Notes: generated by a model from the letters alone, not told the origin. Positions 15,689 through 31,436 are shown, counted from the stretch's first letter. The stretch: 64,000 nt of DNA from a virus (IMGVR_UViG_3300046648_000324:6401-70400); one strand, 5' to 3'. Translations and numbers: made by a program.

Positions 15689-18565
15689 ATGGCAGACATC
15701 AACCTGCGCGCGGCAGCCAAGAGCATCCGGGACCGGTTCAGCCGCACCCCGCCGGCGGCGGCCGCCCCCGTCGAGCCCGCTCCAGCCCCGGCGCCGGCGC
15801 CCGCCCCAGCGGCGACCCCGGCGGCGTCCGGGCCGATCGCGCGCCCGCCCGGCCTGCGCCCGCCCAACCCGAACGCATTCGAGCTGCCGGCCGAGCCCGC
15901 CGGCCCGGCCGGCCAGGGCACCTTGCGCCCGAACGGCGGCTTCGGCAAGCCGCCCGCGCCCAATGTCTGGAGCCCGCGTCCGGCCAGCCCGACCGTTACC
16001 GCGGCGCCGGAGGTGTGGAGCCCGCGCCCGGCGGCCCCGGCGGGCAACGTGTGGCGCTACCCGAACGCCCCTGACACGCCGTTCCCGGCGCAGCAGCGCC
16101 TGCCCGCCCCGGCCGCGCCGGCAGCAGCTGCCCCGCCGTTCGAGGCCGCGCCCGAGTCGCCGATCAAGGTCGGCCAGATGTCGCCCCAGGCCGAGGCCCA
16201 CTACGCCAGCCTGCGCGCCGCCCCCGGCGCACCGGGCGCCGGGCTGCAGCCGGGCGACTGGGTCAAGCCGGGCAGCCCGTTGCCCAAGGCCCCGCCCGCC
16301 CCACCCGGCGCGCTGAGCCGGGTGGGCTCGGCCGTCGCCAACTCCAAACTGGTCAGGTACGGCCTGAAGCCGGCCGCCGCGATCTCGGGCGCGGTCGAGA
16401 CCGTGCAGGGCCTGCGCGCCGGCGACGCCGGCCAGACCGCGTGGGGCGTGGCCGACACCGCCGCCGGGCTCGGCCTGTATGCGCCTTCGGCGCCGGTGAA
16501 GGCGGCCGCCGGCACCTACCTGGGCATCCGCGCCGGCTACGGTGCCGGCCAGGCGCTGCCCGAGGGCGTGCGCGACGGCATCGGCTCGGCCGTCAACCAG
16601 GGCGTGCGCGGGCTGGGCCACCTGTTCGGCCAGGACTGGGGCGTGTCGGAGAAGGATGCGGCCACGTTCGCCGCCAACCGGGCGCTGCCGGATGCGCCCA
16701 AGCCTCCGGTAAGTACCGCCGTACCGGCGCCGGCCAGTACCGCCGTACCGGCGGAGCCGGTGCGCGGCGTGCCGGGGGCCGACGACGGCAGCCTCGCGCC
16801 GCAGGAAGCGGCCCCGAGCTATGCCGCACCGGCGCCACAGGAGGAAGCGGCGCCAGCGGCGCCCGCGCCGCAGAGCGACGCCGACCGCGACCTGCTGCGC
16901 CGGGTCAGCGTGGTCGATGCCACCGGCCACCCGCAGGGCACCACGTTCGAGCAGGACGGCAAGCAGTACGCGGTGCAGCCGTACGGCACCGATGCCACCG
17001 GCCAGACCCCGCTGCGCGGGCTGTCGATCGACGGCCGCGCCGGCTTCGGCGTCGCGCCGAACCAGACCATCAGCCAGTACGACGCCGCCCAGGCGCGTGC
17101 CAATGCGCCTGGCGCGCCCGCCAGCGCCGGGCTGCGCGCCCAGGACACGGCCCCGGCCGCGCAGGCAGCCGCCGCCCCGGCCAACCCGGCCGTCGCCGGC
17201 TTCGCCCAGCAATACGGTGCCGCCGCCGAGCGCGCCGGCCGGGCGCTGGGGGTCGAACCGCAGCTGCTGCTGGCTCAGTGGGGCAACGAGACCGGCTGGG
17301 GCAAGAGTGTGATCCCCGGCACCAACAACCTGGGCAACATCAAGGATGTCAGCGGCCGCGGCGCGCGCGCCACCGACAACGCCACCGGTTCGCGGGACGC
17401 CTACCTGCAGTTTGCCTCGCCCGACGCGTTCGCCGACCACTATGTCGGGATGATCCAGCGCAAGTACCCGGGCGTGGTCGGCGCCGGTACCGACGCCGCC
17501 AAGTTCACCGCCGGGCTCAAAGGCTACGCCGAAGACCCGCAGTACGCCCAGAAGGTGCAGGCCGCCCGCGCGATGCTGGGGGGCGCCGGCCAGCAGCCGG
17601 CGGGTCTGCCGTCCGCGCCTGGCCAGCCACTCCCGCCAAGCCTGCGCGCGCCGGGTCTGCCGTCCGCGCCCGGCCAGCCACTCCCGCCAAGCCTGCGCCC
17701 ACCGCAGCAAGGGCAAGCGGGCAGCGCCCCGGGCGTGGTCCACATGATCGAGGGCACCACCCAGTCGGTGGCGGTGCAGCAGCCCGACGGCAGTTTCGCC
17801 AAGGTGCCGCTGGCCACCTACCAGGCCGGGCTGGCTGCCGGCGCCCCCGATGGCGGCGCCAAGAAATTCCTGGCCAACCAGGCCGAGGGCATCGCCGACA
17901 CGGTCGACCCGAAGCGCGTCGAACGCCAGAAGGCCGCGGCCGAGATGGAGCTGGCCCGCGCCACGCGCGAAGCCGCCATCGCCAACACGAACCGCGACAA
18001 CGTCCGCGCCGACCTGGCCCAGCGCGAGGCGTCCGACAAGCACCTGCACGAGTTCCTGTCGGGCCTGCTGGTCAAGCAAGACGACAAGGGCGCCACCATT
18101 CCCGACCTCGACCGGGTGGCCGAGGCCGGCCGCCTGATGCACAACGAGGTGGGCGAGAAGATCCGCCAGCTGCAGCAGGATTTCCCGCAAGGCCACCCGA
18201 AGCGCGCCGCCGCGCTCAGGATGATCGACGAGCTCGAGACCAAGGGAGTGGGCGCCTTCACCGACGCCGACCGCCAGGTGATGGCGTCGCAGTACCAGAT
18301 CATGGACCGCGTGCGCGAGAACCACGGGCCGTGGACGCCGGGCGGCTCCGAGTTCGTGCAGGGCCCGCTGTCGGGCTACGCGATCGACGACGACGCCACC
18401 AAGGCGCATGGCGGCAAACTGATTGGCAGCGACATGGCGGTGCTCAAGAACGGCGCCCGGATCCGCAAAAACGACCTGCGCTACGACAAGACCAGCAACC
18501 GCTTCTTCGTCGACGTCGGCAAGGCGCCGACGCGCAACTTTGACGCTGGCCTGAGGGGGTACTGA
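15689..18565 (+). CDS. Internal virion/ejection protein with a GH73 (FlgJ-like) peptidoglycan hydrolase domain
   Basis: AAGGA RBS; 'LLLAQWGNETGWGKS...NNLGNIK...YAEDPQYAQK' at about 17200-17580. Confidence 0.8.
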   Translation: MADINLRAAAKSIRDRFSRTPPAAAAPVEPAPAPAPAPAPAATPAASGPIARPPGLRPPNPNAFELPAEPAGPAGQGTLRPNGGFGKPPAPNVWSPRPASPTVTAAPEVWSPRPAAPAGNVWRYPNAPDTPFPAQQRLPAPAAPAAAAPPFEAAPESPIKVGQMSPQAEAHYASLRAAPGAPGAGLQPGDWVKPGSPLPKAPPAPPGALSRVGSAVANSKLVRYGLKPAAAISGAVETVQGLRAGDAGQTAWGVADTAAGLGLYAPSAPVKAAAGTYLGIRAGYGAGQALPEGVRDGIGSAVNQGVRGLGHLFGQDWGVSEKDAATFAANRALPDAPKPPVSTAVPAPASTAVPAEPVRGVPGADDGSLAPQEAAPSYAAPAPQEEAAPAAPAPQSDADRDLLRRVSVVDATGHPQGTTFEQDGKQYAVQPYGTDATGQTPLRGLSIDGRAGFGVAPNQTISQYDAAQARANAPGAPASAGLRAQDTAPAAQAAAAPANPAVAGFAQQYGAAAERAGRALGVEPQLLLAQWGNETGWGKSVIPGTNNLGNIKDVSGRGARATDNATGSRDAYLQFASPDAFADHYVGMIQRKYPGVVGAGTDAAKFTAGLKGYAEDPQYAQKVQAARAMLGGAGQQPAGLPSAPGQPLPPSLRAPGLPSAPGQPLPPSLRPPQQGQAGSAPGVVHMIEGTTQSVAVQQPDGSFAKVPLATYQAGLAAGAPDGGAKKFLANQAEGIADTVDPKRVERQKAAAEMELARATREAAIANTNRDNVRADLAQREASDKHLHEFLSGLLVKQDDKGATIPDLDRVAEAGRLMHNEVGEKIRQLQQDFPQGHPKRAAALRMIDELETKGVGAFTDADRQVMASQYQIMDRVRENHGPWTPGGSEFVQGPLSGYAIDDDATKAHGGKLIGSDMAVLKNGARIRKNDLRYDKTSNRFFVDVGKAPTRNFDAGLRGY
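17601..17699 (+). repeat. 51-bp in-frame tandem repeat (GLPSAPGQPLPPSLR x2)
   Basis: CGGGTCTGCCGTCCGCGCCYGGCCAGCCACTCCCGCCAAGCCTGCGC at 17601 and 17652. Confidence 0.85.
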
Positions 18566-21500
18566 TGGGAATCCTGGCCGACATCGACGCCCTGTACGCC
18601 GGCGCGCCCGCCAAACCGGCCGCCCCGCTCGCCCCCGCGCAGCCGTCCGCCTTCAGCCGCGGCCTGCGCGCCGGCGGCGCCGACCTGGCTGGCCAGGCCC
18701 GCGCGCTGCTGGGCCAGGGCGCGGAGCTGCTCGGCGCCGACCAACTCGCCGCCGAGCAGCGCGCGGCATCGGTGGCCGCGCAGCAAGAGGGCGCCAGCAT
18801 CATGGAAGGGCTGCCGCAGAGCTACCACGACGTGCACGGCCTGCGCGATGCCTGGGACTATGCCACCGGCCTGGTCGGCCGCGCCGGTCCGGGGCTGGTG
18901 CCGATGGCCGCCGGCGCCGCCGTCGGCGGCATTCCCGGCATGATCGCGGCCACCATGCCGTCGACCATCGGCGCCCAGTTCGAGGCGCAGCAGGAAGACC
19001 CGGTGGCGGCCGCCAAGCCGGTTGGCGAACGGACCCTGACCGGCGCCGTGGCCGGCGGCGCCGAGGCGGCCGTGATGGGGGTGGTGCCGGGGGTCATGGG
19101 CGGCAAGCTGTTTGCCAAGGCAGCGACCGGGGCCGCGCGCGTGCCGCTGGGCCAGGCGGTGGCCACCAACCTGGGCGAGGCGGTGGTCGGCAATGCGGTG
19201 GCCGGCAACGTCGCGGCGCGCATCGGCCAGGGTGCGGCCGGCGCGCTGAACCCGGCGCGCGACACCAGCCAGGACGAAGCGCAGCAGATGGAAGCCACCG
19301 TCGGCGGCGCCGTGATGGGCGCGCCGTTCGCGGCACTGGGGGTGGCCGGTTCGCGCCGCGCGCCCAAGGCGCCGAAGGAACCCGCGCCGGCCAAGCCGGG
19401 CGCCGCCACGCCGGATGCGCCGGCCACGTTCGAGCAGCAGCTGGCCGGCCTGTCCGCGGCGCTGACGCCGGACCACGTCACCGGGCGCGAGCATGCTGAC
19501 GCCGCGATCGACGGCACCGAGACGCCGGCCACGATGGCCGGGCGCGACGCCGCCGGCGAAGACCAGGCGCGCACCAAGGCCCAGGCCAAGGTCGCCAAGC
19601 TGCTGGCCGACCCCGAGGCGGCGCACCTGCACGCCGAGCTGAACCAGCTGGACCCGGTCACCACCAGCGGCCAGCAGCGCATTGGCGAACTGAACGTGCA
19701 GCACTTCACGGCCCAGAAGCGCAAGGCCGACCTGGCCGCCGACAATGCCACGCTCGACGCCGCTTTGAGGTCCGCGCCGGAGGAAGCGGGGGAGGCGGCC
19801 AAGGACTACTCGGGCGCCGAGGCCAAGGTGTACGACCTGATGGACGGCCCCGAGTGGGCCGACTTCAGCGCCGAAGACAAGCAGGCAGCGGTAGCGCTGC
19901 TGCGCAAGGCGGTCGAGACCGGCGAGCGCACCGGCGAGATCCCGATGCTGCGCGCGGCGCGCACCGTGATGCGCGGCCAGGACCTGGCCGATCGCCTGCT
20001 GCGTGTCTACCACGTGCTCGGTTCGAGCGACCCGGCGCGGCGCGAGCAGTTCTTCGCCGCGTTCGCCAAGATGAACGCGCACATCAAGCGCGACGATGGC
20101 CTGCGCTACGCGGTCAAGAGCGCGCTGCCCCAACACCTGCGCGGGATCGGCGACGATCAGGTCGACGCGTTCATCGACGGCATGAAGGCGGTCTCGGGCG
20201 AAAACCTGAGCAAGTCGATGGGCGCCAACGAGATGAAGGTGGCCAAGACCCGCATCGACGACCACCTGTTCGACATCTTCGGTGACAAGGCCGAGGGCCT
20301 GATCGGGGCGTTCGCCAAGCACGCCCAGGACAGCGAGGAACTGGTGCCCGCGGGGCTGGAGGAAAAGGCCAAGCTCAAGTCGGCCGCCGACGAACACGCC
20401 GAGGGCGACGAGGCGAACCCCGCAGTCGAGGGCTCCGGCGAGGGCGCCGCCCCACGGCGCGAGGGGGTCGAAGCCGACACCGACAACGGCGACGTGCACA
20501 TCTACTACGGGCGCAAGCCGGACGCCAAGGACCGCTCGCCGTTCGTGCTGAACGACGCGGCGCACGCCAAGCTGTACCCGCACGACAGCGACGCGACGCG
20601 CCCGCAGAGCAAGCGCATGGCCAGGGCGGCGGCCGAGAACCCGGTGCCGCCCGACCCGTACGCCGAAGACCCGGGCGCGCCGCCGCGCAACGTGCGCTGG
20701 ATGGGCGCGCGCGAGTTCGCCGAGCTGCACGGGATGGATCAGGAGCAACTGGCGCGCCACACCGGCGGCAAGCCGGACGACTACGGGCTGGCCGTGGTGC
20801 GCGTGCCCAAGCAGGACGAGTTCAGCTTGTCCGACGCCGACCTCGACGGCATGCGCTTCGGCCGCCACACCATGGCGACCGACCCGGTCACCGGCAAGCA
20901 GGTCGAGAAGCACACGGCCCCGGCGTCGGGCTGGCTCAAGAGCGAAAAGGCGCGCGAGACCGCGTTCGAGGTGGGCGAGCACCTGTTCGATGCCACCCGC
21001 GTGGCGTCGTACATGGCGCGCTCGGATGGCCACGGCAAGGGCATCGCGTTTTCCGCCGCCGACGACGCGCACGGCAAGACCTACCGCACCGCGCGCGCGT
21101 TCGCCGAGGGCATCGCGGCGCTGTCGATCAAGCTGGGGCGCCAGATCGAGGTGCCCGAGCACGTGATCGTGGAGCGCGCCAAGGGCGGCCGCCCGGCGCT
21201 GACCTGGGGCGACCTGCAGGACGTGCTGAAGGACGGCACGGCCAGCGCCGCGCGCGCGCTGGCGCCGCTGCGCAACGAGCGCGACAGCCTGTACGCCGAC
21301 CGCGCCAAGGCGGTGGGCGACAAGGCGCAGGCCGCGTTCGCCGACGCGATCGAGGACGTCAACGCGCGCATCGCGCAGGTGCGCAAGGCGCACGGCATGG
21401 ACCGCGAAGCGTTCGATGGCAGCGACAGCACCACCGCCGAGCTGCAAGCCAAGCTGTCGGACCGGCAGGTCGAACTCGAGCGCTCGCAGGAGGCGCAGGC

Positions 21501-24500
21501 CCGGCTCGAGGCGAAGGCCTCGCGCAGCAAGCAGGAAGAGAAAAACCTGGCCTACCACCGCCGCCAGGTCGCGTTCCTGCAGCCGATGGTCGCCTCGCTC
21601 ACCCACACGCTCGAGCAGCGCGCCAACGCCGCCACCTTCAACGAGGCCAAGCTCGGCAGCGAGCACGGCACCGGGCGCGACATCGGCGAGGGGATCGACC
21701 TGCGCCGCGAACAGCTGCGCGCGGCCGAAGCGGGCGCGGCGCAGTACCAGCACCTGCTCGAGCAGCTCAACGCCCACAAGCCCGGCTCGCCCGGCGAGGG
21801 CGCGGTCTGGGCCCGCGAGCGCGAGCGGGTCAAGGCCCAGATCAAGACCAGCTTCAGCCGGACCCCGCGCGACGAGGTCATGGCCAGCAAGCCGTACCGC
21901 CGGATGGAAGGCTACCTGCGCATCGTCGAGAAGCGCGACCGCGCCCAGATCGAGGCGCTGCGCGAGCGCGCGCTGGCCGCCGCCGACGCCAGCGGCAAGA
22001 CGTTCGAGACAGTCGACGGCAAGCCGGTGGTGGCGGCGGCGCGCCGCGGCGAGGACGCCGCCGGCAACCAGGCCCCCGCGCTCGACGCCAGCGGCAAACC
22101 AGTGACCGCTGAAAAACGCCGCGAGACCACCTGGCGCAAGGCGGTCGGTGGCGACGACAGCGGGCTCGGCATCTCCGAAGCCGACCCGCTGGGCAACGTG
22201 CACCACGCCGCAGCCGAGCACGGCACCGAGGACAACCCCGACGCGCTGGGCGAGGTGGCGAGCAAGGTGCGCCAGAAGGCCGGCGAATACACCGAGCCGA
22301 CCGAGCCGCGCGACCTGGCGCCGGTCCTCCCCGAGGCGCGCTGGGCAGCGCTGAACGCGCTGCCCGCCACGCTGCCGAAGAACCTGGGCGCGGCGCTGCG
22401 CGCGCTGATCGACAACGCCGGGATCCTGAGCAAGGCGCACCGCAAGGAATTCGACAAGCTGATCGGCGACGACGGCAAGCCGCGCGACCAGGCCGCGCTG
22501 CGCGCCACCGTCAAGGACCTGGTCGGCAAGTACCGCACCAGCCCGTCCTGGTCGAGCACGGGCGAGCACGCGTTCGCCAATATCGCCAGCGAGGGCGGGC
22601 CGGTGCACGCGGCGATCCTGAAGAAGGTGGCCAAGAGCGAGGATGCGCGCGAGCTGCACACGGCGCTGCTGGACCTGCTGGGGAGCAAGAACCCGAACGA
22701 GCACAAGGCCAGGGTGATCGACGCCATGACCGCCCGCATCGGCGAGCTGATGGCCGAGTACCCAGACACCGGCTATGCGCTGCAGCTGAAGAGCGCGCAG
22801 GAAACCGGCGGCATGCTGACCCCGGCCCAGCAGGCGTTCGCCGACAAGGTGGGCAAGGGCGGGGTGACCTCCAGGCGCACCGTCGACGGCATGCGCACCA
22901 GCGACGACGTGGCAGCGCTGCAGCGGGCCCAGCGCGCGCTGGCCGGCGCCGACCCCGACAACGTGCACGTGGCGCGCGCGCTGGGCGTGATCGAAGACCG
23001 GCTGGCGGCGCTGGAGGGGAAGACCGCGGCCAAGCCGGCCACGGCCAAGCCCGAGCCCGAGGGCACCATGTACAGCCTGGAGTCGACCCGCGTGCATGAC
23101 GAGCTGGAGCGCGACGGCTTCGCCGCCACCCACGACTCGCCGATCCGCCACGATGGCACGTTCAACTGGCGCGCGCACGAGGGCAACGGCGAAGGCAACG
23201 ACGTGTACGGCGCCGGCACCTACCTGTCCACCGCGGAGGAGGTGCATCAGGGCTACAAGAAGCAGTTCACGCGCGCCATCAAGGGCGACGGCTTGATCAA
23301 TAACCCGCACTATCGGGGGCTGCAGGAGCAGCTGGCCGCGCTGCGCTGGGAAGACAAGACCCCGGCCAACGAGCGCAAGGCCGCCGCGCTGCGGGCGGAG
23401 ATGAAGGCGTTCGAGGACCGCTACAAGATCAGCGGGCTGAACGCCGACAAGTCGCCCACCTACCACGTCTCGGTCGACGTCCCGAGGGAGCATCTGATGA
23501 GCTGGGACTATCCGATCTCGAGGCAGAGCGCGTATGTGCAGCAGGCGCTCGCGCGGGGCGCCAAAATGCTCGACGACCCGGACCAGTACCCGCTGCCGAA
23601 GGGCATGCAATTGCGTTCGTTCGATGGCAAGCCGGGCGACGCGCTGCGCAACCGTTTCGGTGCCGAGGTGTACCGCGACCTGGCCATGCTGCTCGGCTCG
23701 AACCGCGACGCGTCCGAGTACCTGCAGTCGCTCGGCATTCCCGGCCACGAATACGCGTCCGACGGCGGCGCCGACTTGGATAGGCCGAACTTCGTCATCT
23801 ACGACGACAGCAGGATCCGCACCAACTACACCGAGCTCTCGCGCGAGCGCCAGGGCACGGCCGCATCAAGCGCCGCCGCCCAGCAGGCGGTGCACGACTA
23901 CGTCAACCGGGTCACCGGCGGCGCGGTCGACGTCAACGCCGCCGCCCAGCTGCTGTACGCCGGCTCCTACCTGAAGGGCGGCAAGGACGCCGCCGGGGTC
24001 GACTACCGGCCGGTGATCAACGTCTCGGTGCATGCGCTCAACCCGCTGTCGACCGCCTACCACGAGTCGCTGCACTGGTTCGCCGACCACCTGCGCCAGC
24101 ACGGCGAGCCGGCGGTGATGGCGGCGCTGACCCGCGCGGCCGACTCGGCCTACGTGCGCAACTTCCTGCGCAACAAGTTCCGCGACCAGCCCGACGCCTT
24201 GAAGCAGGTCGAGGGCGCCAGCGAGGAGCGGGTCGCCTACATGTACCAGTTCCACCGCAACGGCGAGCTGCAGCTGGGCACGCGCGCCAAGACCATCCTC
24301 GACCGCATCGGCGAGCTGGTCAACCGGGTGCTGGGGGTGTGGAGCAACGACGCGCGCGCGCTGCACATCATGGACTACTTCGGCTCCGGCCAGTACGCGC
24401 GCGAGTTCGGCGGCGGCCCGGTGCGCCCCGGCGCGGCGGCAGCGGCGCACAAGGCGATGATGGAAGTCGGGCGCAACAAGACGCTGGACCGGCTGCACGC

Positions 24501-26586
24501 GAATTTCAAGCCGCTGCTCGACGTCGCCACCGCGGCCGCCGGGATCGGCTCGGCGCGGATCCGCGACATGGGGATCCCGGCGCTGACCAAGATCGCCGAC
24601 CTGGTGCGCCTGCACGACACCAAGGAAGGGGTCGACCCCGGCTACCTGCCGGCGGCCGGCATCGCGCGCCGCGCCTTCGGCCAGCAGCTGGTCAAGGCGA
24701 TGGGCGACTTCACCGCCGAGCAGGCCAACGCGGCGATGGCCGCGATCGCGCAGGACCTGACGCCGGTCGACGCCCACCAGGCGCGCCTGATGAGCGCGAT
24801 GCGGCGCACCATGGGCGACGTCCACGCCTACATGCGCGAGGCCGGGGTGCGCATCGGCGCGCGCGGCCTGAACGGCATCAACGGCAGCAGCTACGCGCCG
24901 CGGGTGTGGGACCCGGGCGCGATCGCCGGCCACCAGGACGCGTTCCGCGCGATGATCCAGAAGTACATCGACAGCGGCGACTTCATCGGCTCGGCCGACG
25001 CCCTGATGACGCGCCTGATGCGCGACGAGGGCACCGAGATCGAGCCGGGCACGGTGGCCGGCCCCGGCGACCAGCACGCCAAGACGCGCGAACTGCACTT
25101 CATCACGGCCGCCGACGCGGCGCCGTTTGTCGAGAAGGACGCGCTGCGGATCCTGACCTCGTACATCGCCCAGGGCACCCGGCGCGCCGAGTGGTCGCGC
25201 CGGTTCGAGGCGATGAGCGCGGCCGAGCGGCGCCACTTCGAGACCTTGACCCCGTACGCGCAGCGCCAGTTCGAGCTCGAGCGCGAGCGGCCGCTGGCCA
25301 TGCTCAAGCGCAACGCGGTCGAGCAGGGCGCGACCCCCGACCAGATCAAGCAGCTGGACCGCTACCTGGAGGGCGTCACCGGCCAGCTGGGGCGCGACGT
25401 CAGGCCGGCCACGCGCCGCCTGTTCGCCCAGGTGATGGTGTACCAGAACCTGCGCCTGCTGCCGCTGGGGTTCTTCTCGACCCTGATCGACCCGGTCGGG
25501 GTCAAGGTGCGCGGCGGCACCCTGGGCGACGTGTTCAACAATTTCAAGCGCGGCATCCTGGAAATCCCGCGCGGCTTCCAGAACAACCCGAAGAGCGACG
25601 CCGGCTACCGCTTCGCCGAGGACCTGGGCGTCATCGACTCGGCCGTGCTGCAGCACGTGATGGGCGCCTCGTACGGCCTGGGCGCGGCCGGCAACCGCAC
25701 CCGCGCGCTGAACGAGGCGGTGTTCAAGTGGAACCTGATGGACCAGATGAACACGTCGCAGCGGGTCGGCGCCACCGAGGCCGCGCTGCGCTTCCTGCTG
25801 CGCCACCGCGACGGCGACGCCAGCGAGCACTCGTTGCGCTACCTGGGCGAGCTGGGCCTGAAGCCGGCCGACATCAAGGTCGTTGGCAGCGGGCGCGACG
25901 CCCGGGTCGCGGTGCGCCCCGAGGACTTCAGCGCGGCCGGCTACACCGAGGCGGCCGCGCTGGCCGCGCACCTGAAGATGCGCCAGGCCGTCAACCGCTG
26001 GGTCGACGGCGCGATCCTGCGCCCCGACCAGAGCAACAAGGCGATCTGGATGAACGACCCGATGTACGCGCTGGTCGCGCACATGAAGCAGTTCTCGTTC
26101 GCGTTCCAGGACACGATCCTGAAACGCGTGCTGCACGAGGCGCGCCACGGCAACTACCAGCCGGCGGCGGCGCTGGCCGGCTACATCCCGGTGATGCTGG
26201 CGGCCGACCTGGCGCGCGGCGCGATCCAGGGCGGCGGTTCGCAGCCGGACTGGAAGCAGGGCTGGGACCTGGGCGACTATCTGGCCAACGCAATCCAGCG
26301 CGCCGGCCTGTTCGGGGTCGGCCAGTTCGCGCTGGACGCGGTCAAGGAAGTGCGCCACGGCCACACCGGGATCGGCGCGCTGGGCGGGCCGACGGTGGCG
26401 CAGCTGGCCCAGGTCGTGGCCACCGTCGGCGGCCAGCGCAGTCTGGCGGCGACCACGATCGACGCGATGCCGGCCAACGCGCTGTGGAGCGGCTACCTGC
26501 CCGGCACCACCCGCAGCCACAGCCTGGGCCATGACGGCGACTCGACCGAGTACAGCCCGACCGAGCCGATGCAGATCGACGACTGA
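18565..26586 (+). CDS. Giant internal virion / polyvalent protein with ART-like and zincin (HExxH) domains
   Basis: 2673 aa; 'HDSP...GNGEGNDVYGAGTYLS...GIPG...NFVIYDD' resembles the polyvalent-protein ART fold; 'TAYHESLH'; last gene of the virion arm. Confidence 0.75.
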   Translation: MGILADIDALYAGAPAKPAAPLAPAQPSAFSRGLRAGGADLAGQARALLGQGAELLGADQLAAEQRAASVAAQQEGASIMEGLPQSYHDVHGLRDAWDYATGLVGRAGPGLVPMAAGAAVGGIPGMIAATMPSTIGAQFEAQQEDPVAAAKPVGERTLTGAVAGGAEAAVMGVVPGVMGGKLFAKAATGAARVPLGQAVATNLGEAVVGNAVAGNVAARIGQGAAGALNPARDTSQDEAQQMEATVGGAVMGAPFAALGVAGSRRAPKAPKEPAPAKPGAATPDAPATFEQQLAGLSAALTPDHVTGREHADAAIDGTETPATMAGRDAAGEDQARTKAQAKVAKLLADPEAAHLHAELNQLDPVTTSGQQRIGELNVQHFTAQKRKADLAADNATLDAALRSAPEEAGEAAKDYSGAEAKVYDLMDGPEWADFSAEDKQAAVALLRKAVETGERTGEIPMLRAARTVMRGQDLADRLLRVYHVLGSSDPARREQFFAAFAKMNAHIKRDDGLRYAVKSALPQHLRGIGDDQVDAFIDGMKAVSGENLSKSMGANEMKVAKTRIDDHLFDIFGDKAEGLIGAFAKHAQDSEELVPAGLEEKAKLKSAADEHAEGDEANPAVEGSGEGAAPRREGVEADTDNGDVHIYYGRKPDAKDRSPFVLNDAAHAKLYPHDSDATRPQSKRMARAAAENPVPPDPYAEDPGAPPRNVRWMGAREFAELHGMDQEQLARHTGGKPDDYGLAVVRVPKQDEFSLSDADLDGMRFGRHTMATDPVTGKQVEKHTAPASGWLKSEKARETAFEVGEHLFDATRVASYMARSDGHGKGIAFSAADDAHGKTYRTARAFAEGIAALSIKLGRQIEVPEHVIVERAKGGRPALTWGDLQDVLKDGTASAARALAPLRNERDSLYADRAKAVGDKAQAAFADAIEDVNARIAQVRKAHGMDREAFDGSDSTTAELQAKLSDRQVELERSQEAQARLEAKASRSKQEEKNLAYHRRQVAFLQPMVASLTHTLEQRANAATFNEAKLGSEHGTGRDIGEGIDLRREQLRAAEAGAAQYQHLLEQLNAHKPGSPGEGAVWARERERVKAQIKTSFSRTPRDEVMASKPYRRMEGYLRIVEKRDRAQIEALRERALAAADASGKTFETVDGKPVVAAARRGEDAAGNQAPALDASGKPVTAEKRRETTWRKAVGGDDSGLGISEADPLGNVHHAAAEHGTEDNPDALGEVASKVRQKAGEYTEPTEPRDLAPVLPEARWAALNALPATLPKNLGAALRALIDNAGILSKAHRKEFDKLIGDDGKPRDQAALRATVKDLVGKYRTSPSWSSTGEHAFANIASEGGPVHAAILKKVAKSEDARELHTALLDLLGSKNPNEHKARVIDAMTARIGELMAEYPDTGYALQLKSAQETGGMLTPAQQAFADKVGKGGVTSRRTVDGMRTSDDVAALQRAQRALAGADPDNVHVARALGVIEDRLAALEGKTAAKPATAKPEPEGTMYSLESTRVHDELERDGFAATHDSPIRHDGTFNWRAHEGNGEGNDVYGAGTYLSTAEEVHQGYKKQFTRAIKGDGLINNPHYRGLQEQLAALRWEDKTPANERKAAALRAEMKAFEDRYKISGLNADKSPTYHVSVDVPREHLMSWDYPISRQSAYVQQALARGAKMLDDPDQYPLPKGMQLRSFDGKPGDALRNRFGAEVYRDLAMLLGSNRDASEYLQSLGIPGHEYASDGGADLDRPNFVIYDDSRIRTNYTELSRERQGTAASSAAAQQAVHDYVNRVTGGAVDVNAAAQLLYAGSYLKGGKDAAGVDYRPVINVSVHALNPLSTAYHESLHWFADHLRQHGEPAVMAALTRAADSAYVRNFLRNKFRDQPDALKQVEGASEERVAYMYQFHRNGELQLGTRAKTILDRIGELVNRVLGVWSNDARALHIMDYFGSGQYAREFGGGPVRPGAAAAAHKAMMEVGRNKTLDRLHANFKPLLDVATAAAGIGSARIRDMGIPALTKIADLVRLHDTKEGVDPGYLPAAGIARRAFGQQLVKAMGDFTAEQANAAMAAIAQDLTPVDAHQARLMSAMRRTMGDVHAYMREAGVRIGARGLNGINGSSYAPRVWDPGAIAGHQDAFRAMIQKYIDSGDFIGSADALMTRLMRDEGTEIEPGTVAGPGDQHAKTRELHFITAADAAPFVEKDALRILTSYIAQGTRRAEWSRRFEAMSAAERRHFETLTPYAQRQFELERERPLAMLKRNAVEQGATPDQIKQLDRYLEGVTGQLGRDVRPATRRLFAQVMVYQNLRLLPLGFFSTLIDPVGVKVRGGTLGDVFNNFKRGILEIPRGFQNNPKSDAGYRFAEDLGVIDSAVLQHVMGASYGLGAAGNRTRALNEAVFKWNLMDQMNTSQRVGATEAALRFLLRHRDGDASEHSLRYLGELGLKPADIKVVGSGRDARVAVRPEDFSAAGYTEAAALAAHLKMRQAVNRWVDGAILRPDQSNKAIWMNDPMYALVAHMKQFSFAFQDTILKRVLHEARHGNYQPAAALAGYIPVMLAADLARGAIQGGGSQPDWKQGWDLGDYLANAIQRAGLFGVGQFALDAVKEVRHGHTGIGALGGPTVAQLAQVVATVGGQRSLAATTIDAMPANALWSGYLPGTTRSHSLGHDGDSTEYSPTEPMQIDD

Positions 26587-26597
26587 CGCGTATTCAT

Positions 26598-26650
26598 CCG
26601 GCCCGGCCCGGCAAAAAAGGGGCATCACGCCCCGGGCCGGGCCGGCGGGA
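26598..26650. terminator. Convergent-junction terminator(s)
   Basis: Minus strand GGGGC-GTGAT-GCCCC plus T6, nested within the inverted repeat CCGGCCCGGCCCGG/CCGGGCCGGGCCGG. Confidence 0.55.
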
Positions 26651-26792
26651 TGCGCCAGCTCGCCACCACCAGCATGACGATCAGCGCCGCTGCTGCCCAG
26701 CCATAATCGCCATCGCTGGCCCAGCGCCAGAAATCCACGCCATTGGCCAGCCCGAGCGCCCACTGCAGGCACAGCAGTTGGCGGCGCGACAT
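26625..26792 (-). CDS. Small membrane protein (55 aa)
   Basis: MSRRQLLCLQWALGLANGVDFWRWASDGDYGWAAAALIVMLVVASWRIPPARPGA; coupled to the upstream XRE gene. Confidence 0.5.
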   Translation of the reverse strand: MSRRQLLCLQWALGLANGVDFWRWASDGDYGWAAAALIVMLVVASWRIPPARPGA

Positions 26793-27013
26793 CAGGACGG
26801 CTCCGCGTCGAACTTCTCGAACTTCACCACGATCCGATAGCCCAGGATTTCCGCTATCTCCGTCGCCAGCACGTCTGTCAGGGATTGGTTCTGCTTCTCG
26901 ATATTGGTGATGCTGGTGCGCGTCAAGCCCACCGACTCGGCCAGCGCGCCCTGTGTCATGCCCTTCATTTTGCGCAGCGCCCTGATCGTCGGGCCGAGTG
27001 TATTCTTCTTCAT
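26792..27013 (-). CDS. XRE/Cro-CI family HTH regulator
   Basis: 'IRALRKMKGMTQGALAESVGLTRTSITNIEK' HTH_3 signature. Confidence 0.88.
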   Translation of the reverse strand: MKKNTLGPTIRALRKMKGMTQGALAESVGLTRTSITNIEKQNQSLTDVLATEIAEILGYRIVVKFEKFDAEPS

Positions 27014-27273
27014 CAGGATGGCTCCGCCTCGACCGGCCACAGGCGCTGGAAACCGTCGCTGCGGCGGTAGGCCTTGGCGGTCAGGTCATACACCATGTTG
27101 CCCGGCGCCAGCGCCAGGTAGGTGCGGATGTCGAGCGACGCCTGCGGCATCGACAGCGCGAAGTAATCCATGATCGTGGCCCGGTTGATGTGGCCGTAGT
27201 TGGCCAGCAGGCACTCGATGAATTGCAGGCGCTGTAGCAGCGCCGGGCGCAGGGTGGATAGGTCGGGGGTCAC
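27013..27273 (-). CDS. Stand-alone CapW/BrxR-like winged-HTH protein (no WYL domain)
   Basis: 'RLQFIECLLANYGHINRATIMDYFALSMPQASLDIRTYLALAPGNMVYDLTAKAY' matches the pattern of the CapW/BrxR N-terminal wHTH. Confidence 0.75.
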   Translation of the reverse strand: MTPDLSTLRPALLQRLQFIECLLANYGHINRATIMDYFALSMPQASLDIRTYLALAPGNMVYDLTAKAYRRSDGFQRLWPVEAEPS

Positions 27274-27482
27274 GGGGACGCTCTCACAGGGGTTGGCAAC
27301 GGCGCCATGCGCGCGATGAAGTCGGCCACGGTGCGGTAGTACAGCACGCCGCTGTGGATGTCGCGGTACACCAGCAGCGCCTCGGCGTCCCGTGAGGTGC
27401 CGGCGCCCAGCGCCGAGCCGAGCAGCTCGTAGGCGCCGCCCTTGCCGCTGCAGGTCCAGTGGGTGATCGGGGGCAGGCTCAT
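27270..27482 (-). CDS. Small hypothetical protein (DUF1653-like)
   Basis: 'KGGAYELLG...LVYRD...LYYRTVADFIARM'. Confidence 0.55.
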   Translation of the reverse strand: MSLPPITHWTCSGKGGAYELLGSALGAGTSRDAEALLVYRDIHSGVLYYRTVADFIARMAPLPTPVRASP

Positions 27483-27739
27483 GGGGTGGGCTCCGCGCTG
27501 CGCGGCTGCGATTCGATGTCGATCAGGTGCCGGATCCACTGCTGGGCGCCGGCCTTGGTCAGGTGGGCGCTATCGGGGTCGCGCGCGACCCAGTCTGGCC
27601 AGCAGCCGTGCCAGCCGCTCAGCTGCATGTAGGCGCGCATGGCGCCGACCGACTTGTCGCCGCCGTTCTGGTAGTACAGCAGGAATGCGCGCAGTGCGCG
27701 GTTCTCGCCGTCGTCGTCGAGCAGGTCGCGGGGGCTCAT
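27479..27739 (-). CDS. Hypothetical protein
   Basis: MSPRDLLDDDGENRALRAFLLYY...; ATGA overlaps on both sides. Confidence 0.65.
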   Translation of the reverse strand: MSPRDLLDDDGENRALRAFLLYYQNGGDKSVGAMRAYMQLSGWHGCWPDWVARDPDSAHLTKAGAQQWIRHLIDIESQPRSAEPTP

Positions 27740-28263
27740 TTGAACATCCGTTCCTGGCCGGCCACCTCGAGCAGCTCGCGCGATTTCTGGTCGGCGCCGC
27801 CCTCGAGCACCTGCAGTTCGACCTGGCGCCCGCCGTCGGCCGAGTATTGGGTGACCATGCGGAACACCGCGCGCCGTTCGCGGATCTGCTTCCACTCGCC
27901 CTTGGCGAACAGGAACGGGTCGAGCTCGTAGTCGCCGCGCCCCAGCTTCTTCAGCAGCCCGGCCTTGACGCAGGCGCCGATCGCGTTCTCGACGCTCTTG
28001 GGCTGCTGGCCGACGGTGGCCGCGATGCGCTGCTTGCGGCCCGAGGTCAGGCTGACGATCCCCTCGTAGTCGACGCTGGCCGCGATGTACAGCAGGATTT
28101 CCTGGTGCCCGGCCTGGATGTTGAAAAAGCGCGCGACGTCCTGCACGTACAGCTTGATGTACTCGGGCTCCCTGGCCATCGGCTTTAAGGCCGGGTCGCC
28201 GATGTCGAGCGGTTTGCCGGTGGCGATATCGGTGACGCTGCTCTTGCGGACGGCCTTGCTCAT
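27736..28263 (-). CDS. repL: RepL-like plasmid replication initiator (wHTH)
   Basis: 'EPEYIKLYVQD...KQRIAATVG...VENAIGACVKAGLLKKLGRGDYELDPFLFAKGEW' fits the RepL family pattern; adjacent to an iteron-like region. Confidence 0.7.
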   Translation of the reverse strand: MSKAVRKSSVTDIATGKPLDIGDPALKPMAREPEYIKLYVQDVARFFNIQAGHQEILLYIAASVDYEGIVSLTSGRKQRIAATVGQQPKSVENAIGACVKAGLLKKLGRGDYELDPFLFAKGEWKQIRERRAVFRMVTQYSADGGRQVELQVLEGGADQKSRELLEVAGQERMFK

Positions 28264-28289
28264 CGGGGTTCCTCGCAGGTGTGGTGACG

Positions 28290-28700
28290 GCTGTCAATAT
28301 TATCACCGAGTAATCCCCCAACGCTAGGGGGGTGACCCCCTGCAGCCAGGGGGTGTTTTTTAACAGAATTGTGAAAATCCACGTCAAATGCCCCCTGTTT
28401 CCAGGGGGCGACCTAGCCCTGGAATAATGGGTGTTGTCGGGAATCCCGACCCCCTGGATTGGGGAAGGAAACCCCCCAATCCAGGGAAGAAATCGGGCAT
28501 ACGCCCTTATACTTACTGGGCTCCTGACATCTCTTCTATACACGTTAACTATGCTATATCTCAGGGCTGTTTCCGTGGCTCGCGGCCTGACGCGCTTGCG
28601 CTTGTCGGCTCACCGATTTGCTGCGCAAACCGGCAAGCGGCGTTTTTTTTTTTATTTACCAGCTGTCGCTTTTTGGCACAAGGCCCTCGGCCTGCAGGCA
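28290..28700. other. Putative plasmid origin (oriV) with iteron-like C5..G5 boxes and AT-rich tracts
   Basis: CCCCC-N7/8-GGGGG at 28315, 28336 and 28391; inverted pair CCCTGGATTGGGG/CCCCAATCCAGGG at 28452-28486; AT-rich 28500-28560 and T-run at about 28643; no credible ORF. Confidence 0.6.
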
Positions 28701-28846
28701 ACGGCAACGCGTGCAGACCTGCGGGGACGCGCCAGCGCGCCGGTTTCTCGCTTTAGCGGCGTGGCCCGTCCAGGGCCATCCCCGGCCTGCGCGGCGGTCC
28801 TCCAGACCGGCCGCCCCGCGGCGCCGAGGTTCCACGGACACCTTCT

Positions 28847-28909
28847 CCCTATGGGCGCAGCCCATCACTTCATGCTCGCCCTCATCCTATGGGCGCGCGC
28901 CCATCACTT
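28847..28909. repeat. Direct repeat of small hairpins CCTATGGGCGC(A/GC)GCCCATCACTT
   Basis: Two copies at about 28848 and 28886, each containing the ATGGGC/GCCCAT inverted repeat. Confidence 0.7.
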
Positions 28910-28915
28910 TTTGGG

Positions 28916-29236
28916 TCAGGGGTCGACCGTCTCGCTGCCGTCCGGCGCGCGCCGGCGCCCGGTCATCGGGTCCTTGTGCCAGCCCTGCGGCTCGGTGCCG
29001 GCGGCGCCGTCCCACGCGTCGAGCGCCGCCTTGGCGGCCGCGTAGTCGTGGTAGCACCAGCGCCGCGCGTAGCCGAGCGGCTCCATGTCGGCCAGGATCG
29101 CGTGGGTGAACAGGAAGCGGGCGATGCCGCAGATGCCGGCGTCGCCCTTGGGCGCGACGTCGTGGTAGAGGCCCTCGCCGCGCTCGACGATCAGGGCGAT
29201 CAGGGCGGCGGTGGCGGGGTCGGTGGGGGTGCTCAT
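28916..29236 (-). CDS. Hypothetical phage protein
   Basis: AAGGAG RBS; 'RWCYHDYAAAKAALDAWDG...EPQGWHKDPMTGRRR'. Confidence 0.7.
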   Translation of the reverse strand: MSTPTDPATAALIALIVERGEGLYHDVAPKGDAGICGIARFLFTHAILADMEPLGYARRWCYHDYAAAKAALDAWDGAAGTEPQGWHKDPMTGRRRAPDGSETVDP

Positions 29237-29279
29237 GGCGGGGCTCCTTGAAACGGCGCAGGGTAGCACGGCGCTGCGC

Positions 29280-29525
29280 TCAGGCGCGCGCCGCAGCCAG
29301 CCGGCTGGCGAACACCAGCCGCAGCGCCTGCGCGCACAGCTCGTCGCGGGCGGCGGCCTGGGCCCGTGCCAGCACGAATGCGCGCGCGGCGGCGTCGGTG
29401 GTGAAGATGTTGGAAGCGTCGTCGCGCAGGACCTCGAGCAGCAGCCGGCCGTCCCACACCTCGGCCAGCAGCCAGCCCTGGCCCCGTGCTTTTTTTGCCT
29501 GCTCCGCGTTCCAGTCCTGTATCAT
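29280..29525 (-). CDS. Hypothetical protein
   Basis: GGAGG RBS; 81 aa. Confidence 0.6.
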   Translation of the reverse strand: MIQDWNAEQAKKARGQGWLLAEVWDGRLLLEVLRDDASNIFTTDAAARAFVLARAQAAARDELCAQALRLVFASRLAAARA

Positions 29526-29542
29526 GGCGCCTCCGTGTGATG

Positions 29543-29590
29543 GTATGCAGCAGCATACCGCATCCGGTACCCCGATACATACCTGACTAC
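29543..29590. promoter_or_regulatory. Phased TAC-box array upstream of the par operon (candidate parS/operator)
   Basis: TAC at 29556, 29568, 29576, 29580 and 29588, all in one 4-nt register. Confidence 0.55.
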
Positions 29591-29597
29591 CAACGAC

Positions 29598-29792
29598 ATG
29601 AACTTCTCACTCGAACTGACCTGTGACAACGCGGCGTTCGGCCCCACCTTCGAGGATGCGACGGCCGAGATCGCGCGGATCCTGCGCCTGGCCGCGGTCG
29701 CGGTGGACGCTGCCAACGTGCCGCAGCGGCGCACCGCCTACAACCTGCGCGACATCAACGGCCACATCGTCGGCACCTGGAGCCTGGCGTGA
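29598..29792 (+). CDS. Small conserved phage protein (paralogue of 50546-50761)
   Basis: 'DNAAF...EIARILR...RDINGHIVGTW'. Confidence 0.7.
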   Translation: MNFSLELTCDNAAFGPTFEDATAEIARILRLAAVAVDAANVPQRRTAYNLRDINGHIVGTWSLA

Positions 29793-30457
29793 TCTACCTG
29801 GTGGGGTCGTCGAAAGGGGGCGCCGGCAAGTCGACCGTGGCGGTCAACCTGGCCGCGCTGCTGGCGTCCCTGCGCGGGCGCGACGTGCTGCTGGTCGACA
29901 CCGACCAGGCCCAGCCCAGCTCGTCCCTGTGGGCCAGCCTGCGCGCGGCGCGGCCGGCGGCGCCGCCGCTGTCGTGCGTGGCGTTCGGCGCGGCCAGCCT
30001 GGGCCACGAAGTGCGGCGCGCGCTGCGCAAGTACGACGACATCGTGCTCGACGCCGGCGGCCACGATTCGGCCGAGCTGCGCGCGGCGCTGCTGGTGGCC
30101 GACGTGGTCTTGATGCCGGTGGCGCCGGCGCTGTTCGACATCGCGGCGATGGCCACCGACAGCAAGCTGCTCGACTTCGCGCGCCAGTTCAACCCGGCGC
30201 TGCGGGCCTTCATCGTGATCAACAACGCCTCGACCCATTCGTTTGAATCGGGCACGCGCGACACGCGCGAGCAGGCGCGCCAGCTGGCGCCGAACTACGC
30301 GATGCTGGACACCGTGCTGCGCCGCCGCGCGACCTATGACAGCGCCAAGCTGGCCGGTCTCGGCGTGGTCGAGCTCGGGGCGCGCGACAAGGCGGCGGAA
30401 CTGGAAATGCGCGCGCTGTTCAACGAGCTAGCGATGGCGCTGCCGGAGGGCGCATGA
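29789..30457 (+). CDS. parA: ParA family partition ATPase (type Ib)
   Basis: Deviant Walker A 'KGGAGKST', 'VLLVDTDQ', 'DDIVLDAGG', 'ADVVLMPV'; no N-terminal HTH. Confidence 0.92.
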   Translation: MIYLVGSSKGGAGKSTVAVNLAALLASLRGRDVLLVDTDQAQPSSSLWASLRAARPAAPPLSCVAFGAASLGHEVRRALRKYDDIVLDAGGHDSAELRAALLVADVVLMPVAPALFDIAAMATDSKLLDFARQFNPALRAFIVINNASTHSFESGTRDTREQARQLAPNYAMLDTVLRRRATYDSAKLAGLGVVELGARDKAAELEMRALFNELAMALPEGA

Positions 30458-30675
30458 ACGGCGCGTTACAGGCGCGGCTGCGCCTGATCGATTTCCTGCT
30501 CGACTACTACGGCTCGGTGGCGCGCGCCGAGGTCATGGACTTCTGCGGCATCGGGCCGGCCCAGGCCTCGCGCGACCTGGCGCTGTACCTGGAACAGGCA
30601 CCGGGCAACATGTGGCTCGACCACGCCACCAAGCGCTATCTGCGCAGCTCCTTCTTCGAGAGGCAATTTCCATGA
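30454..30675 (+). CDS. Second stand-alone CapW/BrxR-like winged-HTH protein
   Basis: 'RLRLIDFLLDYYGSVARAEVMDFCGIGPAQASRDLALYLEQAPGNMWLDHATKRY'; paralogue of 27013-27273. Confidence 0.75.
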   Translation: MNGALQARLRLIDFLLDYYGSVARAEVMDFCGIGPAQASRDLALYLEQAPGNMWLDHATKRYLRSSFFERQFP

Positions 30676-30899
30676 GCACCAAGCCGAACAAGTTCGCCGC
30701 CGCCGCCGACTTCATCCGCGCCGCGCCGACCGAGGCCGCCAGCGGCGGTGGACGGCGCCCGCCAGCGGCGGACTCGCGCCTGACGGTCAACATCGACCGC
30801 GCGCTGCACCTGCGGGTCAAGCTGTACGCGGTGGCCAACTACACCTCGATCGGCGAACTGATCGAGGAGTGGATCGAGCAGCACGTGCCGCCGGGCTAG
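30672..30899 (+). CDS. ParG-like ribbon-helix-helix centromere-binding protein
   Basis: Flexible N-terminal tail plus RHH 'RLTVNIDRALHLRVKLYAVANYTSIGELIEEWI'; in the parA operon. Confidence 0.8.
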   Translation: MSTKPNKFAAAADFIRAAPTEAASGGGRRPPAADSRLTVNIDRALHLRVKLYAVANYTSIGELIEEWIEQHVPPG

Positions 30900-30911
30900 T
30901 CCGGCTCGCCG

Positions 30912-31217
30912 CTATTCTTCGCGGTCGAGCACGGAACGCACGTGGTGTGCGATCAGGCCGCCCACGGTCAGCGCGGGGTCGAGCGGATCGAACGGCACCC
31001 CGGCCGCGGCGCAGCGCGCCTCGATTTCGTCGCGCCAGACGTCGGGGAGCGGGCCGTACTGGCACTTTTCATACTCCTCGATGATCAGGGCCAGCAGGTG
31101 CAGCTGGTCGGCCTCGGGGGTGCCGAGCGCCGGGTCGAGTTTGATCAGTTCCTGCACGGCCGCCATCGCCAGCATATAGGCGTCGGCGTCGCGGATCGGC
31201 TTGATCAGGTTGATCAT
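30912..31217 (-). CDS. HigA-like antitoxin N-terminal domain lacking the XRE HTH
   Basis: 'IKPIRDADAY..AMA.VQELI..DP..GTPEADQL.LLALIIEEYEK' is the HigA N-terminal pattern; the C-terminus is unrelated; no adjacent toxin. Confidence 0.65.
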   Translation of the reverse strand: MINLIKPIRDADAYMLAMAAVQELIKLDPALGTPEADQLHLLALIIEEYEKCQYGPLPDVWRDEIEARCAAAGVPFDPLDPALTVGGLIAHHVRSVLDREE

Positions 31218-31220
31218 GGG

Positions 31221-31436
31221 TCAGCTCCTTTTTACCTTGACGGCTTCCAGCACCTGCCCGAGGTGCCGGTAGGCGGTCAACGTCGCGACATAGGAAAAAT
31301 TCCCTGCCGGCGATTCGGCCAGCATGGCGATCAAGCCTTCCCTGACACCGGGGCGGCTCAATGCGCCGCCGATCATGCCAAGGTGGAGGGCCAGCTCGGA
31401 CAACAGCGTCTGGTCGTGTTGGTCTTGGGCGCTCAT
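31221..31436 (-). CDS. Hypothetical protein
   Basis: MSAQDQHDQTLLSEL...; coupled ORF. Confidence 0.55.
   Translation of the reverse strand: MSAQDQHDQTLLSELALHLGMIGGALSRPGVREGLIAMLAESPAGNFSYVATLTAYRHLGQVLEAVKVKRS

Follow-up and report, generated by a model that had tools for sequence, protein, structure and literature searches.

Two small proteins encoded by a virus are true homologues of the N-terminal winged helix-turn-helix (wHTH) domain of the WYL-domain repressors CapW and BrxR, by sequence and by fold. They lie in a 64,000-nucleotide stretch (the window; bases 6401-70400) of the IMG/VR record IMGVR_UViG_3300046648_000324, and we refer to them as P0001 and P0002. CapW, BrxR and their relatives control many anti-phage and anti-plasmid systems, and why they are placed under such control is treated as an open question in the literature (bioRxiv 10.1101/2025.11.13.688357, PMC11662680). 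Because the WYL and WCX domains and the defence-operon neighbourhood are all missing, P0001 and P0002 are a WYL-less variant, neither CapW nor BrxR. Our tentative reading, held at a little short of even confidence, is that they act as dimeric repressors of the phage's own operons by binding 18-bp palindromes in the promoters of these operons.

P0001 (86 amino acids, aa) is encoded on the minus strand at 27013-27273 from a GTG start, which is supported by homologues that start at the same point, and P0002 (73 aa) on the plus strand at 30454-30675 from an ATG start. Both open reading frames (ORFs) are present at the positions and lengths given in the initial annotation, and their GC content at third codon positions (0.91 for P0001 and 0.88 for P0002) agrees with coding sequence in a window of 70.7% GC. 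The residue pattern by which the annotation had called them paralogues is reproduced by BLASTP, which aligns the two without gaps at 32 of 73 identities (44%, E 1e-18). Their recognition helices differ, reading SMPQASLD in P0001 and GPAQASRD in P0002.

Searches of Pfam, PHROGs and NCBIfam returned no family for either protein, and the PADLOC WYL model gave a weak match over the model's first 67 positions only (E 0.038). The identity came from proteins of known structure. In phmmer searches of the PDB, P0001 matched CapW of P. aeruginosa (7tb5, E 5.6e-14), S. maltophilia (7tb6, E 3.7e-9) and R. leguminosarum (9c5g, E 2.2e-8), as well as BrxR (7qfz, E 4.9e-5; 7t8k, E 4e-4), in each case over the first 70-95 residues of chains of about 290-300. 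P0002 matched the same proteins at E values of 6.4e-6, 1.1e-5 and 4.6e-5, and the 7T8K BrxR at only 1.6. AlphaFold (AF2) models of both proteins, with predicted local distance difference test (pLDDT) values of 91.9 for P0001 and 97.1 for P0002, consist of three helices and a two-stranded wing; in P0001 the helices span residues 10-26, 31-38 and 42-55, and the wing strands 60-63 and 68-71. When the models were compared with the PDB by Foldseek, the best 12 matches listed were all BrxR or CapW, with root-mean-square deviations (rmsd) of 0.5-1.6 Å and query-normalised template-modelling scores (TMq) of 0.77-0.85 for P0001 and 0.88-0.98 for P0002. The next matches, among them IclR, MarR and the pNOB8 protein AspA, were about three orders of magnitude weaker. 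The proposal that the shared pattern is the N-terminal wHTH of CapW and BrxR is thus borne out by sequence matches to solved structures, and by the structure search that had been suggested as its check.

The likeness extends to the residues that contact DNA. P0001 is 43% identical to P. aeruginosa CapW across 70 residues, including SMPQASLDI aligned with SVPQASLDI in the recognition region. In S. maltophilia CapW, DNA binding is reported to be abolished by mutation of R32, or of S42, Q45 and S47 together (PMC9122588). All four positions are kept in P0001, where R31, S41, Q44 and S46 are aligned with them, and three of the four in P0002 (R24, G34, Q37 and S39). Across 67 short proteins of the family, conservation of the arginine that is R31 in P0001 is 90% or more.

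The sensor part is absent. The ORFs end six (P0001) and zero (P0002) residues past the last aligned wHTH residue, so that the linker, the WYL domain (the single-stranded DNA (ssDNA) sensor, with its RWHVR motif) and the WCX part are lacking in both, as had been noted from the sequence at the outset. The genes downstream encode an XRE-type helix-turn-helix (HTH) protein after P0001 and a ribbon-helix-helix (RHH) protein after P0002, and neither encodes a WYL domain.

P0001 and P0002 belong to a widespread and mostly phage-borne family of stand-alone wHTH proteins, recognised by a length of about 70-120 aa and a wHTH that runs up to the C-terminus in an F-x-R-x-W/F-P-like motif, features that both proteins have. 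A word-index homologue search found five relatives of P0001 (79-89 aa) and none of P0002. A profile built from the two proteins and five close relatives was searched against 1.84 billion representative proteins and gave 1954 matches at E <= 1e-3, 408 of them at E <= 1e-10. Among the best 150 matches, the domain ended within 10 residues of the C-terminus in 68 (47 of at most 100 aa, 13 of 101-130 aa and 8 longer forms with N-terminal extensions), 30 were full-length proteins of about 290-350 aa, and 52 were intermediate, many of which are probably fragments; the top 31 were C-terminal-domain forms without exception. The short-family consensus GISxPQASxD agrees with that of the full-length proteins. 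Relatives carry the precomputed database label PF26109.1, so a Pfam model for the domain exists, and 10 short representatives are unnamed or annotated as 'hypothetical protein'. A search of BFVD gave a single clear relative by structure, a Pantoea phage protein that is itself uncharacterised. One metagenomic representative, P0023 (145 aa), joins a CI/XRE-type HTH (HTH_3, E 1.7e-13) to the stand-alone wHTH, a fusion of note given that, in the window, the gene right after P0001 is of the XRE type. Cys-x2-Cys pairs suggestive of zinc ribbons are present in several of the other N-extended members.

A quick maximum-likelihood tree of the domain (106 rows, 79 columns), which was poorly resolved, placed all 30 full-length proteins within one 36-row group (Shimodaira-Hasegawa-like approximate likelihood-ratio support, SH-aLRT, of 93). 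Outside this group were 62 of the 68 short proteins, together with 8 extended ones, and for this reason the short proteins are mostly an old separate lineage rather than fresh truncations or copies of host regulators. The tree assigns P0001 to one short subclade and P0002 to another, so that the two are likewise old paralogues and not the outcome of a recent duplication.

The distribution of the family was estimated by pattern scans, none of which is a census; it is rare among cultured phages and in species genomes. A scan of IMG/VR with the seven-sequence alignment gave 68 loci on contigs of 5-315 kb and 30-68% GC; in 67 of them the domain ends within 9 residues of the stop codon, and one is full-length. 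The statement that phages carry almost only the short form, which these counts would suggest, was dropped since a second scan with a separate pattern, keyed on the WYL motif, gave 54 viral loci with full-length proteins. The motif RLRFIDFL[LFM] occurs at two loci in 185,579 species genomes, one short (in a metagenome-assembled genome) and one full-length, and at 16 loci, all short, among the 52 matches of a viral scan; the enrichment in phages that this gives is a rough estimate, as that scan used a slightly different pattern set. In 50,697 cultured-phage records, tblastn found two matches, Stenotrophomonas phage Sonora and a Yersinia jumbo phage. The Sonora protein (CPT_Sonora_088, gp88) is a hypothetical protein of 75 aa, 52.7% identical to P0001, and matches the CapW of P. 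aeruginosa at E 4.9e-15 and that of S. maltophilia at E 3.7e-13. Its gene lies in an array of small hypothetical genes of a phage of the Mesyanzhinovviridae, a family that is generally virulent. Among plasmids, 295 records matched, and 21 of the 30 listed were annotated 'WYL domain-containing protein' and are thus full-length; three such loci that were inspected lie beside a CBASS (cyclic oligonucleotide-based antiphage signalling system) operon, a nuclease-helicase pair and a helicase-methylase pair, respectively.

In the window, the two genes are embedded in operons of the plasmid-maintenance type. A six-gene operon on the minus strand, led by a RepL-like gene, has P0001 in fourth place, and P0002 comes third in a plus-strand operon of four genes, between a ParA-type ATPase and the RHH protein. 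Within each operon every gene overlaps the next, with ATGA, GTGA or TGATG at the junction, and because of this translation is probably coupled throughout. The positions assigned to the genes by the initial annotation, within a repL operon and between parA and parG, stand, as does the identity of ParA (phrog_164, E 1.3e-36), whereas the matches to RepL and ParG are weak.

We propose that each protein would form a symmetric homodimer through helices 1 and 2, with the recognition helix and wing facing a palindrome of about 18-20 bp. The homodimer model that had been suggested as a check was obtained for P0001, with a score of 0.62 against 0.11 for the best control; in calibration, the mark applied is passed by 20 of 30 proteins known from homo-pair structures, against 1 of 23 that were solved as single chains. 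Contact agreement between runs was at least 82% and the partner pLDDT at least 85. The predicted interface is formed by helices 1 and 2 plus residue 81 (residues 17-18, 21-22, 24-26, 30, 32-33, 36-37, 39 and 81) and leaves the recognition helix (42-55) and wing free. This prediction may reflect the likeness of P0001 to solved CapW and BrxR dimers, in which the wHTH domains sit side by side.

Such dimers would act as ligand-independent repressors of their own maintenance operons, or as co-repressors with the XRE or RHH protein. Candidate operators are available in both promoter regions. Upstream of the RepL-like gene lies a non-coding region of 650 bp, in which the perfect 18-bp palindrome CCCCCTG-N4-CAGGGGG occurs at 28336-28353 and, 55 bp from it, at 28391-28408; these are the only two matches without mismatch in the window. 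A third perfect 18-bp palindrome, GGTATGC-N4-GCATACC, lies at 29542-29559 (1 match against 0.03 expected in the window), inside the 72-bp gap between a divergent gene (29280-29525, minus strand) and the ParA operon. The window thus holds exactly three perfect copies of the two kinds of 7-N4-7 palindrome tested. P0001 would act on the RepL-like operon through the two upstream palindromes, and P0002 on the ParA-RHH operon through the palindrome in the divergent promoter gap. It is because the recognition helices differ that the two paralogues are suggested to read different operators, and the assignment of each protein to its site is likewise only proposed.

The initial annotation had offered, as an alternative to a role against the host, that the proteins are the phage's own repressor acting on TCTA-N3-TAGA operators. 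We judge the former part somewhat likelier than host mimicry; the latter did not hold. The TCTA-N3-TAGA motif itself is real, with five sites in the window (at 1311, 10144, 10233, 33369 and 36682) against 0.04 expected, but none is near the P0001 or P0002 gene. They are located ahead of the major head gene, at or shortly beyond the end of the gene at 9007-10224, and between early genes. The motif extends to (CGA)TCTA-WWW-TAGATCG, with a hexamer resembling a -10 element (for example TATAAT or TAAAAT) in each core, and the sites probably serve as phage promoters or as operators for a different regulator.

CapW-type sites were compared as well. Candidate palindromes lie in the promoter gaps of full-length CapW-like plasmid genes, TATACGCATA-N7-TATGCGTATA in Paraburkholderia (L073, 4860-4900) and GCGCAT-N7-ATGCGC in Haematobacter (L074, 4955-4985), and the CGCAT half-site that they have in common may be a common operator core of this branch; at a third plasmid locus the candidate site is of a GCGTA type, so that candidate sites vary between plasmid loci. 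The corresponding operator CGCAT-N5-9-ATGCG is absent from the window. A match between the TATGC/GCATA of the window and the pentamers of the Paraburkholderia CapW promoter was rejected, as their orientation and spacing are opposite or different.

Several observations weigh against autoregulation of this kind. Each operon encodes another small DNA binder, the XRE HTH or the RHH protein, that is an equally good candidate for the sites. The palindrome at 28336-28353 is also terminator-like on the plus strand. At 18 bp, the candidate sites are shorter than the palindromes of 19-27 bp that CapW and BrxR are reported to bind at their own promoters (PMC9122588, PMC9122589, PMC9122601). The palindromes of the window were not found in the other loci compared, and a comparison of the 68 related viral loci gave no palindrome common to the surroundings of their wHTH genes. 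Nor is there a conserved neighbour in these 68 loci, whether sought by phmmer with the neighbours from the window, by de novo clustering or by PHROG and Pfam tallies: ParA is near a family member in 2 of the 68, the RepL type of the window in none and an XRE protein in 6, and the commonest family among 132 immediate neighbours has four members. Because the family has no conserved neighbour, a role in replication or partition cannot be its general function, and the position of the Sonora homologue in an array of small hypothetical genes fits a host-directed accessory protein at least as well. The tallies of immediate neighbours of short wHTH genes also contained xenogeneic-silencer types in Pfam (MvaT_DBD twice and the H-NS C-terminal domain once) and three single ParB-like matches in PHROGs.

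A host-directed role was the central suggestion of the initial annotation. Sensor-less dimers might hold the CapW- or BrxR-type operators of the host and maintain the repression of CBASS, bacteriophage exclusion (BREX), Wadjet or restriction-modification (R-M) operons during replication of the phage or phage-plasmid; without a response to ssDNA, the repression would persist. We regard this as possible but on balance unlikely. It draws on the closeness of the recognition region to that of CapW, set out above (43% over 70 residues, SMPQASLDI against SVPQASLDI), on the consensus GISxPQASxD that short and full-length proteins have in common, and on a WYL- and WCX-free homodimer that is predicted, if perhaps through likeness to solved dimers. 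The family is also enriched in phages, among small unannotated genes and without a conserved partner, and anti-defence genes often lie in just such surroundings without a fixed partner. Sonora infects S. maltophilia, in which a CapW-controlled CBASS has been studied, and its 75-aa member matches the CapW of that species (E 3.7e-13); this protein is, however, closer to the CapW of P. aeruginosa (E 4.9e-15) than to that of its host species. CapW-mediated induction is reported to matter for protection against prophage induction (PMC11662680), and WYL derepression to prime defence against later attack (bioRxiv 10.1101/2025.11.13.688357), and since such induction protects or primes the host, blocking it could benefit a phage. 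Basal CBASS expression is nevertheless described as already protective against lytic infection (PMC9122588, PMC11662680). CapW and BrxR homologues are each reported to read their own operator (PMC9122589), and the candidate sites vary among the plasmid loci, both of which count against the mimic. Nor do the short proteins look like the recent copies that close host mimicry would predict, with 62 of 68 outside the full-length group. The close coupling of the two genes to their neighbours in rep and par operons points to a housekeeping function for the element. CapW-like sites are absent from the window; the targets of a mimic would however lie in the host. The literature searched contained no paper that proposes such silencing and hence no precedent. 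The broader form of this idea, in which phage-borne sensor-less wHTH proteins are a widespread counter-defence class of constitutive 'super-repressors' that block damage- or infection-triggered induction of WYL-controlled CBASS, BREX, Wadjet and R-M operons, and are co-expressed here with the genes for replication and partition to secure tolerance of the episome, seems rather doubtful to us.

Alternatively, the proteins might serve maintenance as adaptors and not as transcription factors, P0002 as a second centromere-binding or ParA-adaptor protein and P0001 as a helper that binds the origin or iterons for the RepL-like initiator. P0002 is indeed wedged between ParA and the ParG-like RHH protein with overlapping stop and start codons, P0001 is encoded in the RepL-like operon beside a 650-bp repeat-rich non-coding region, and small wHTH centromere binders exist, of which pNOB8 AspA is among the weaker Foldseek matches (E about 0.03-0.06 and TMq 0.49-0.52, with P0001 only). 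The likeness to AspA is that of wHTH domains in general, and BrxR and CapW match far better. ParA, near a family member in only two of the 68 viral loci, is never adjacent in the gene maps, the sites are single palindromes rather than the repeat arrays usual for centromeres, and five of five related virus records have one copy only, all of which makes this reading improbable. Assignment of P0002 itself as a ParG or type Ib centromere binder was ruled out, as it is a three-helix winged helix and the RHH protein is the product of the next gene. Least probable is that the free wHTH forms no autonomous DNA-binding dimer and instead pairs with the wHTH face of host CapW or BrxR, or with the other paralogue, and alters its DNA binding. 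The predicted self-interface is formed by helices 1 and 2, the wHTH domains of CapW and BrxR are described as lying side by side (PMC9122588), and two paralogues in one genome could heterodimerise. However, the host dimers are reported to be domain-swapped through the linker, WYL and WCX parts, which leaves scant room for exchange (PMC9122588, PMC11662680), and a poisoned repressor would turn defence on and so harm the phage.

The neighbourhood of the two genes is as follows. The P0001 operon opens with the RepL-like gene (27736-28263, minus strand; 175 aa), whose Pfam RepL match is below the cut-off (E 0.029) and whose Atlas feature and structure look-alikes in RepL clusters (0.97) are a lead only. 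It is followed on the same strand by an 86-aa ORF with no family or PHROG match (27479-27739), hidden in the automatic ORF list beneath a longer, spurious one. ATGA overlaps couple it to the RepL-like gene on one side and, on the other, to the gene for a phrog_12584/DUF1653-like protein of 70 aa (27270-27482; E 2e-15). The stop codon of the latter overlaps the GTG start of P0001 (GTGA). The stop codon of P0001 in turn overlaps the ATG of the XRE-type HTH_3 protein (TGATG; 26792-27013, minus strand; Pfam HTH_3, E 3e-10), and a 55-aa hydrophobic ORF without a PHROG match is the last of the operon (26625-26792, minus strand). P0001 and the XRE protein share the ending ...AEPS followed by TGATG, and a 22-nt direct repeat, 91% identical, spans the two successive gene junctions at 26790-26811 and 27011-27032; it looks like the scar of a gene insertion or of module shuffling. 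A GC-rich, terminator-like hairpin with a T-run lies at 26588-26655 between the operon and the convergent gene for a 2673-aa virion protein.

The P0002 operon begins with a phrog_9027 protein of 64 aa (29598-29792, plus strand; E 1.5e-9), followed by the ParA-type partition ATPase (29789-30457, plus strand; 222 aa), which also matches Pfam AAA_31, CbiA and MipZ and whose stop codon overlaps the start of P0002 (ATGA). The ATGA at the end of P0002 leads into the RHH protein (30672-30899, plus strand; 75 aa), which is ParG/RHH_10-like with weak Pfam matches (E 0.015-0.023), a weak Arc-like PHROG match and an Atlas lead (0.95-0.96). The non-coding region upstream of the RepL-like gene (28264-28915, 650 bp) is lower in GC and contains several hairpins and palindromes, including CCCTGGATTGGGG / CCCCAATCCAGGG, as well as a run of 11 T with one more T after a single A at about 28645-28657; six of the nine terminator-like sites of the region lie in it. 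It is a candidate for an origin or for a region of regulatory RNA. A comparison with Rfam gave nothing above threshold there, and a sigma-70 scan gave no promoter within 26500-31300.

The source record is a linear-class virus of 70,400 bp with a CheckV completeness of 100%. Up to 26586, the plus strand of the window carries structural genes, including those for the major head protein, the Hc3 head closure protein and the 2673-aa virion protein (18565-26586, plus strand), which has the C-terminus of an internal virion protein and matches known internal virion and structural families in its last ~860 residues only; the 958-aa protein encoded immediately upstream contains an endolysin-like segment. 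From 26625 on, the genes are mostly on the minus strand and include a DNA polymerase, helicase, primase and exonuclease. No tyrosine integrase, serine recombinase/resolvase or protelomerase was found across the whole record. Given this absence, together with ParA and the RepL-like gene, an episomal phage-plasmid lifestyle fits the record, which is consistency and not proof, and the suggestion that both wHTH genes are on in the plasmid or lysogenic state agrees with it. With ParA, RHH and RepL-like genes next to a complete set of lytic replication genes and internal virion proteins like those of podoviruses, the record as a whole is a candidate for an unusual type of phage-plasmid.

We found no paper describing WYL-less phage homologues of CapW or BrxR in the literature searched, which is not proof that there is none. 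A phage family whose members correspond precisely to the DNA-binding half of such repressors offers a direct handle on the purpose of WYL control. If its members bind host operators, they would represent a new, transcription-level route by which phages and phage-plasmids disarm inducible immunity; if they bind phage operators, the DNA-binding module of CapW and BrxR would be an old regulator of phages, fused to a sensor later on by bacteria, or the history would have run the other way round. Sonora gp88 provides a cultured entry point to the family.

Among known systems, CapW (7TB5, 7TB6, 9C5G) is one of the closest. It has the same winged helix, with an rmsd of 0.5-0.9 Å to 7TB5 and 7TB6 and up to 1.6 Å to 9C5G, the residues needed for its DNA binding are mostly kept, and the side-by-side arrangement of wHTH domains in its dimer is similar to that predicted for P0001. 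In contrast to P0001 and P0002, CapW has a linker, WYL and WCX domains, ssDNA sensing and a domain-swapped dimer, and it adjoins a defence operon, whereas the proteins described here are encoded by a virus within RepL-like and ParA operons. A tryptophan that is invariant in 24 aligned full-length proteins (W34 of 'WEG') is not conserved in the short family and is N25 in P0001. BrxR (7QFZ, 7T8K/L) shares the fold (TMq 0.81-0.98), with a significant sequence match in three of four pairs (E 4.6e-5 to 4e-4), and binds palindromes of two 10-11-bp half-sites, a type of site that a dimer of P0001 or P0002 could read. It differs in its linker, WYL and WCX parts and its defence operon in the same way as CapW, and the Acinetobacter BrxR contacts bases through an SRQQ motif where the present family has the CapW-like S-x-P-Q-A-S.

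In genetic setting, the two proteins resemble ParG, omega, CopG and KorA, which are small operon-encoded autoregulators of plasmid rep and par modules: each is a small dimeric DNA binder, as predicted here, co-translated with maintenance genes and with a palindrome in the promoter of its operon. Those autoregulators are RHH or classic HTH proteins, whereas P0001 and P0002 have a CapW/BrxR-type wHTH, for which no description as a rep/par autoregulator was found in the literature searched. Stenotrophomonas phage Sonora CPT_Sonora_088 (75 aa) and a protein of Pantoea phage vB_PagM_LIET2 (97 aa) have the same architecture, with the wHTH ending at the C-terminus. They sit in arrays of small genes rather than in rep/par operons, and the single family member in each of the five related virus records contrasts with the unusual pair carried by the present phage.

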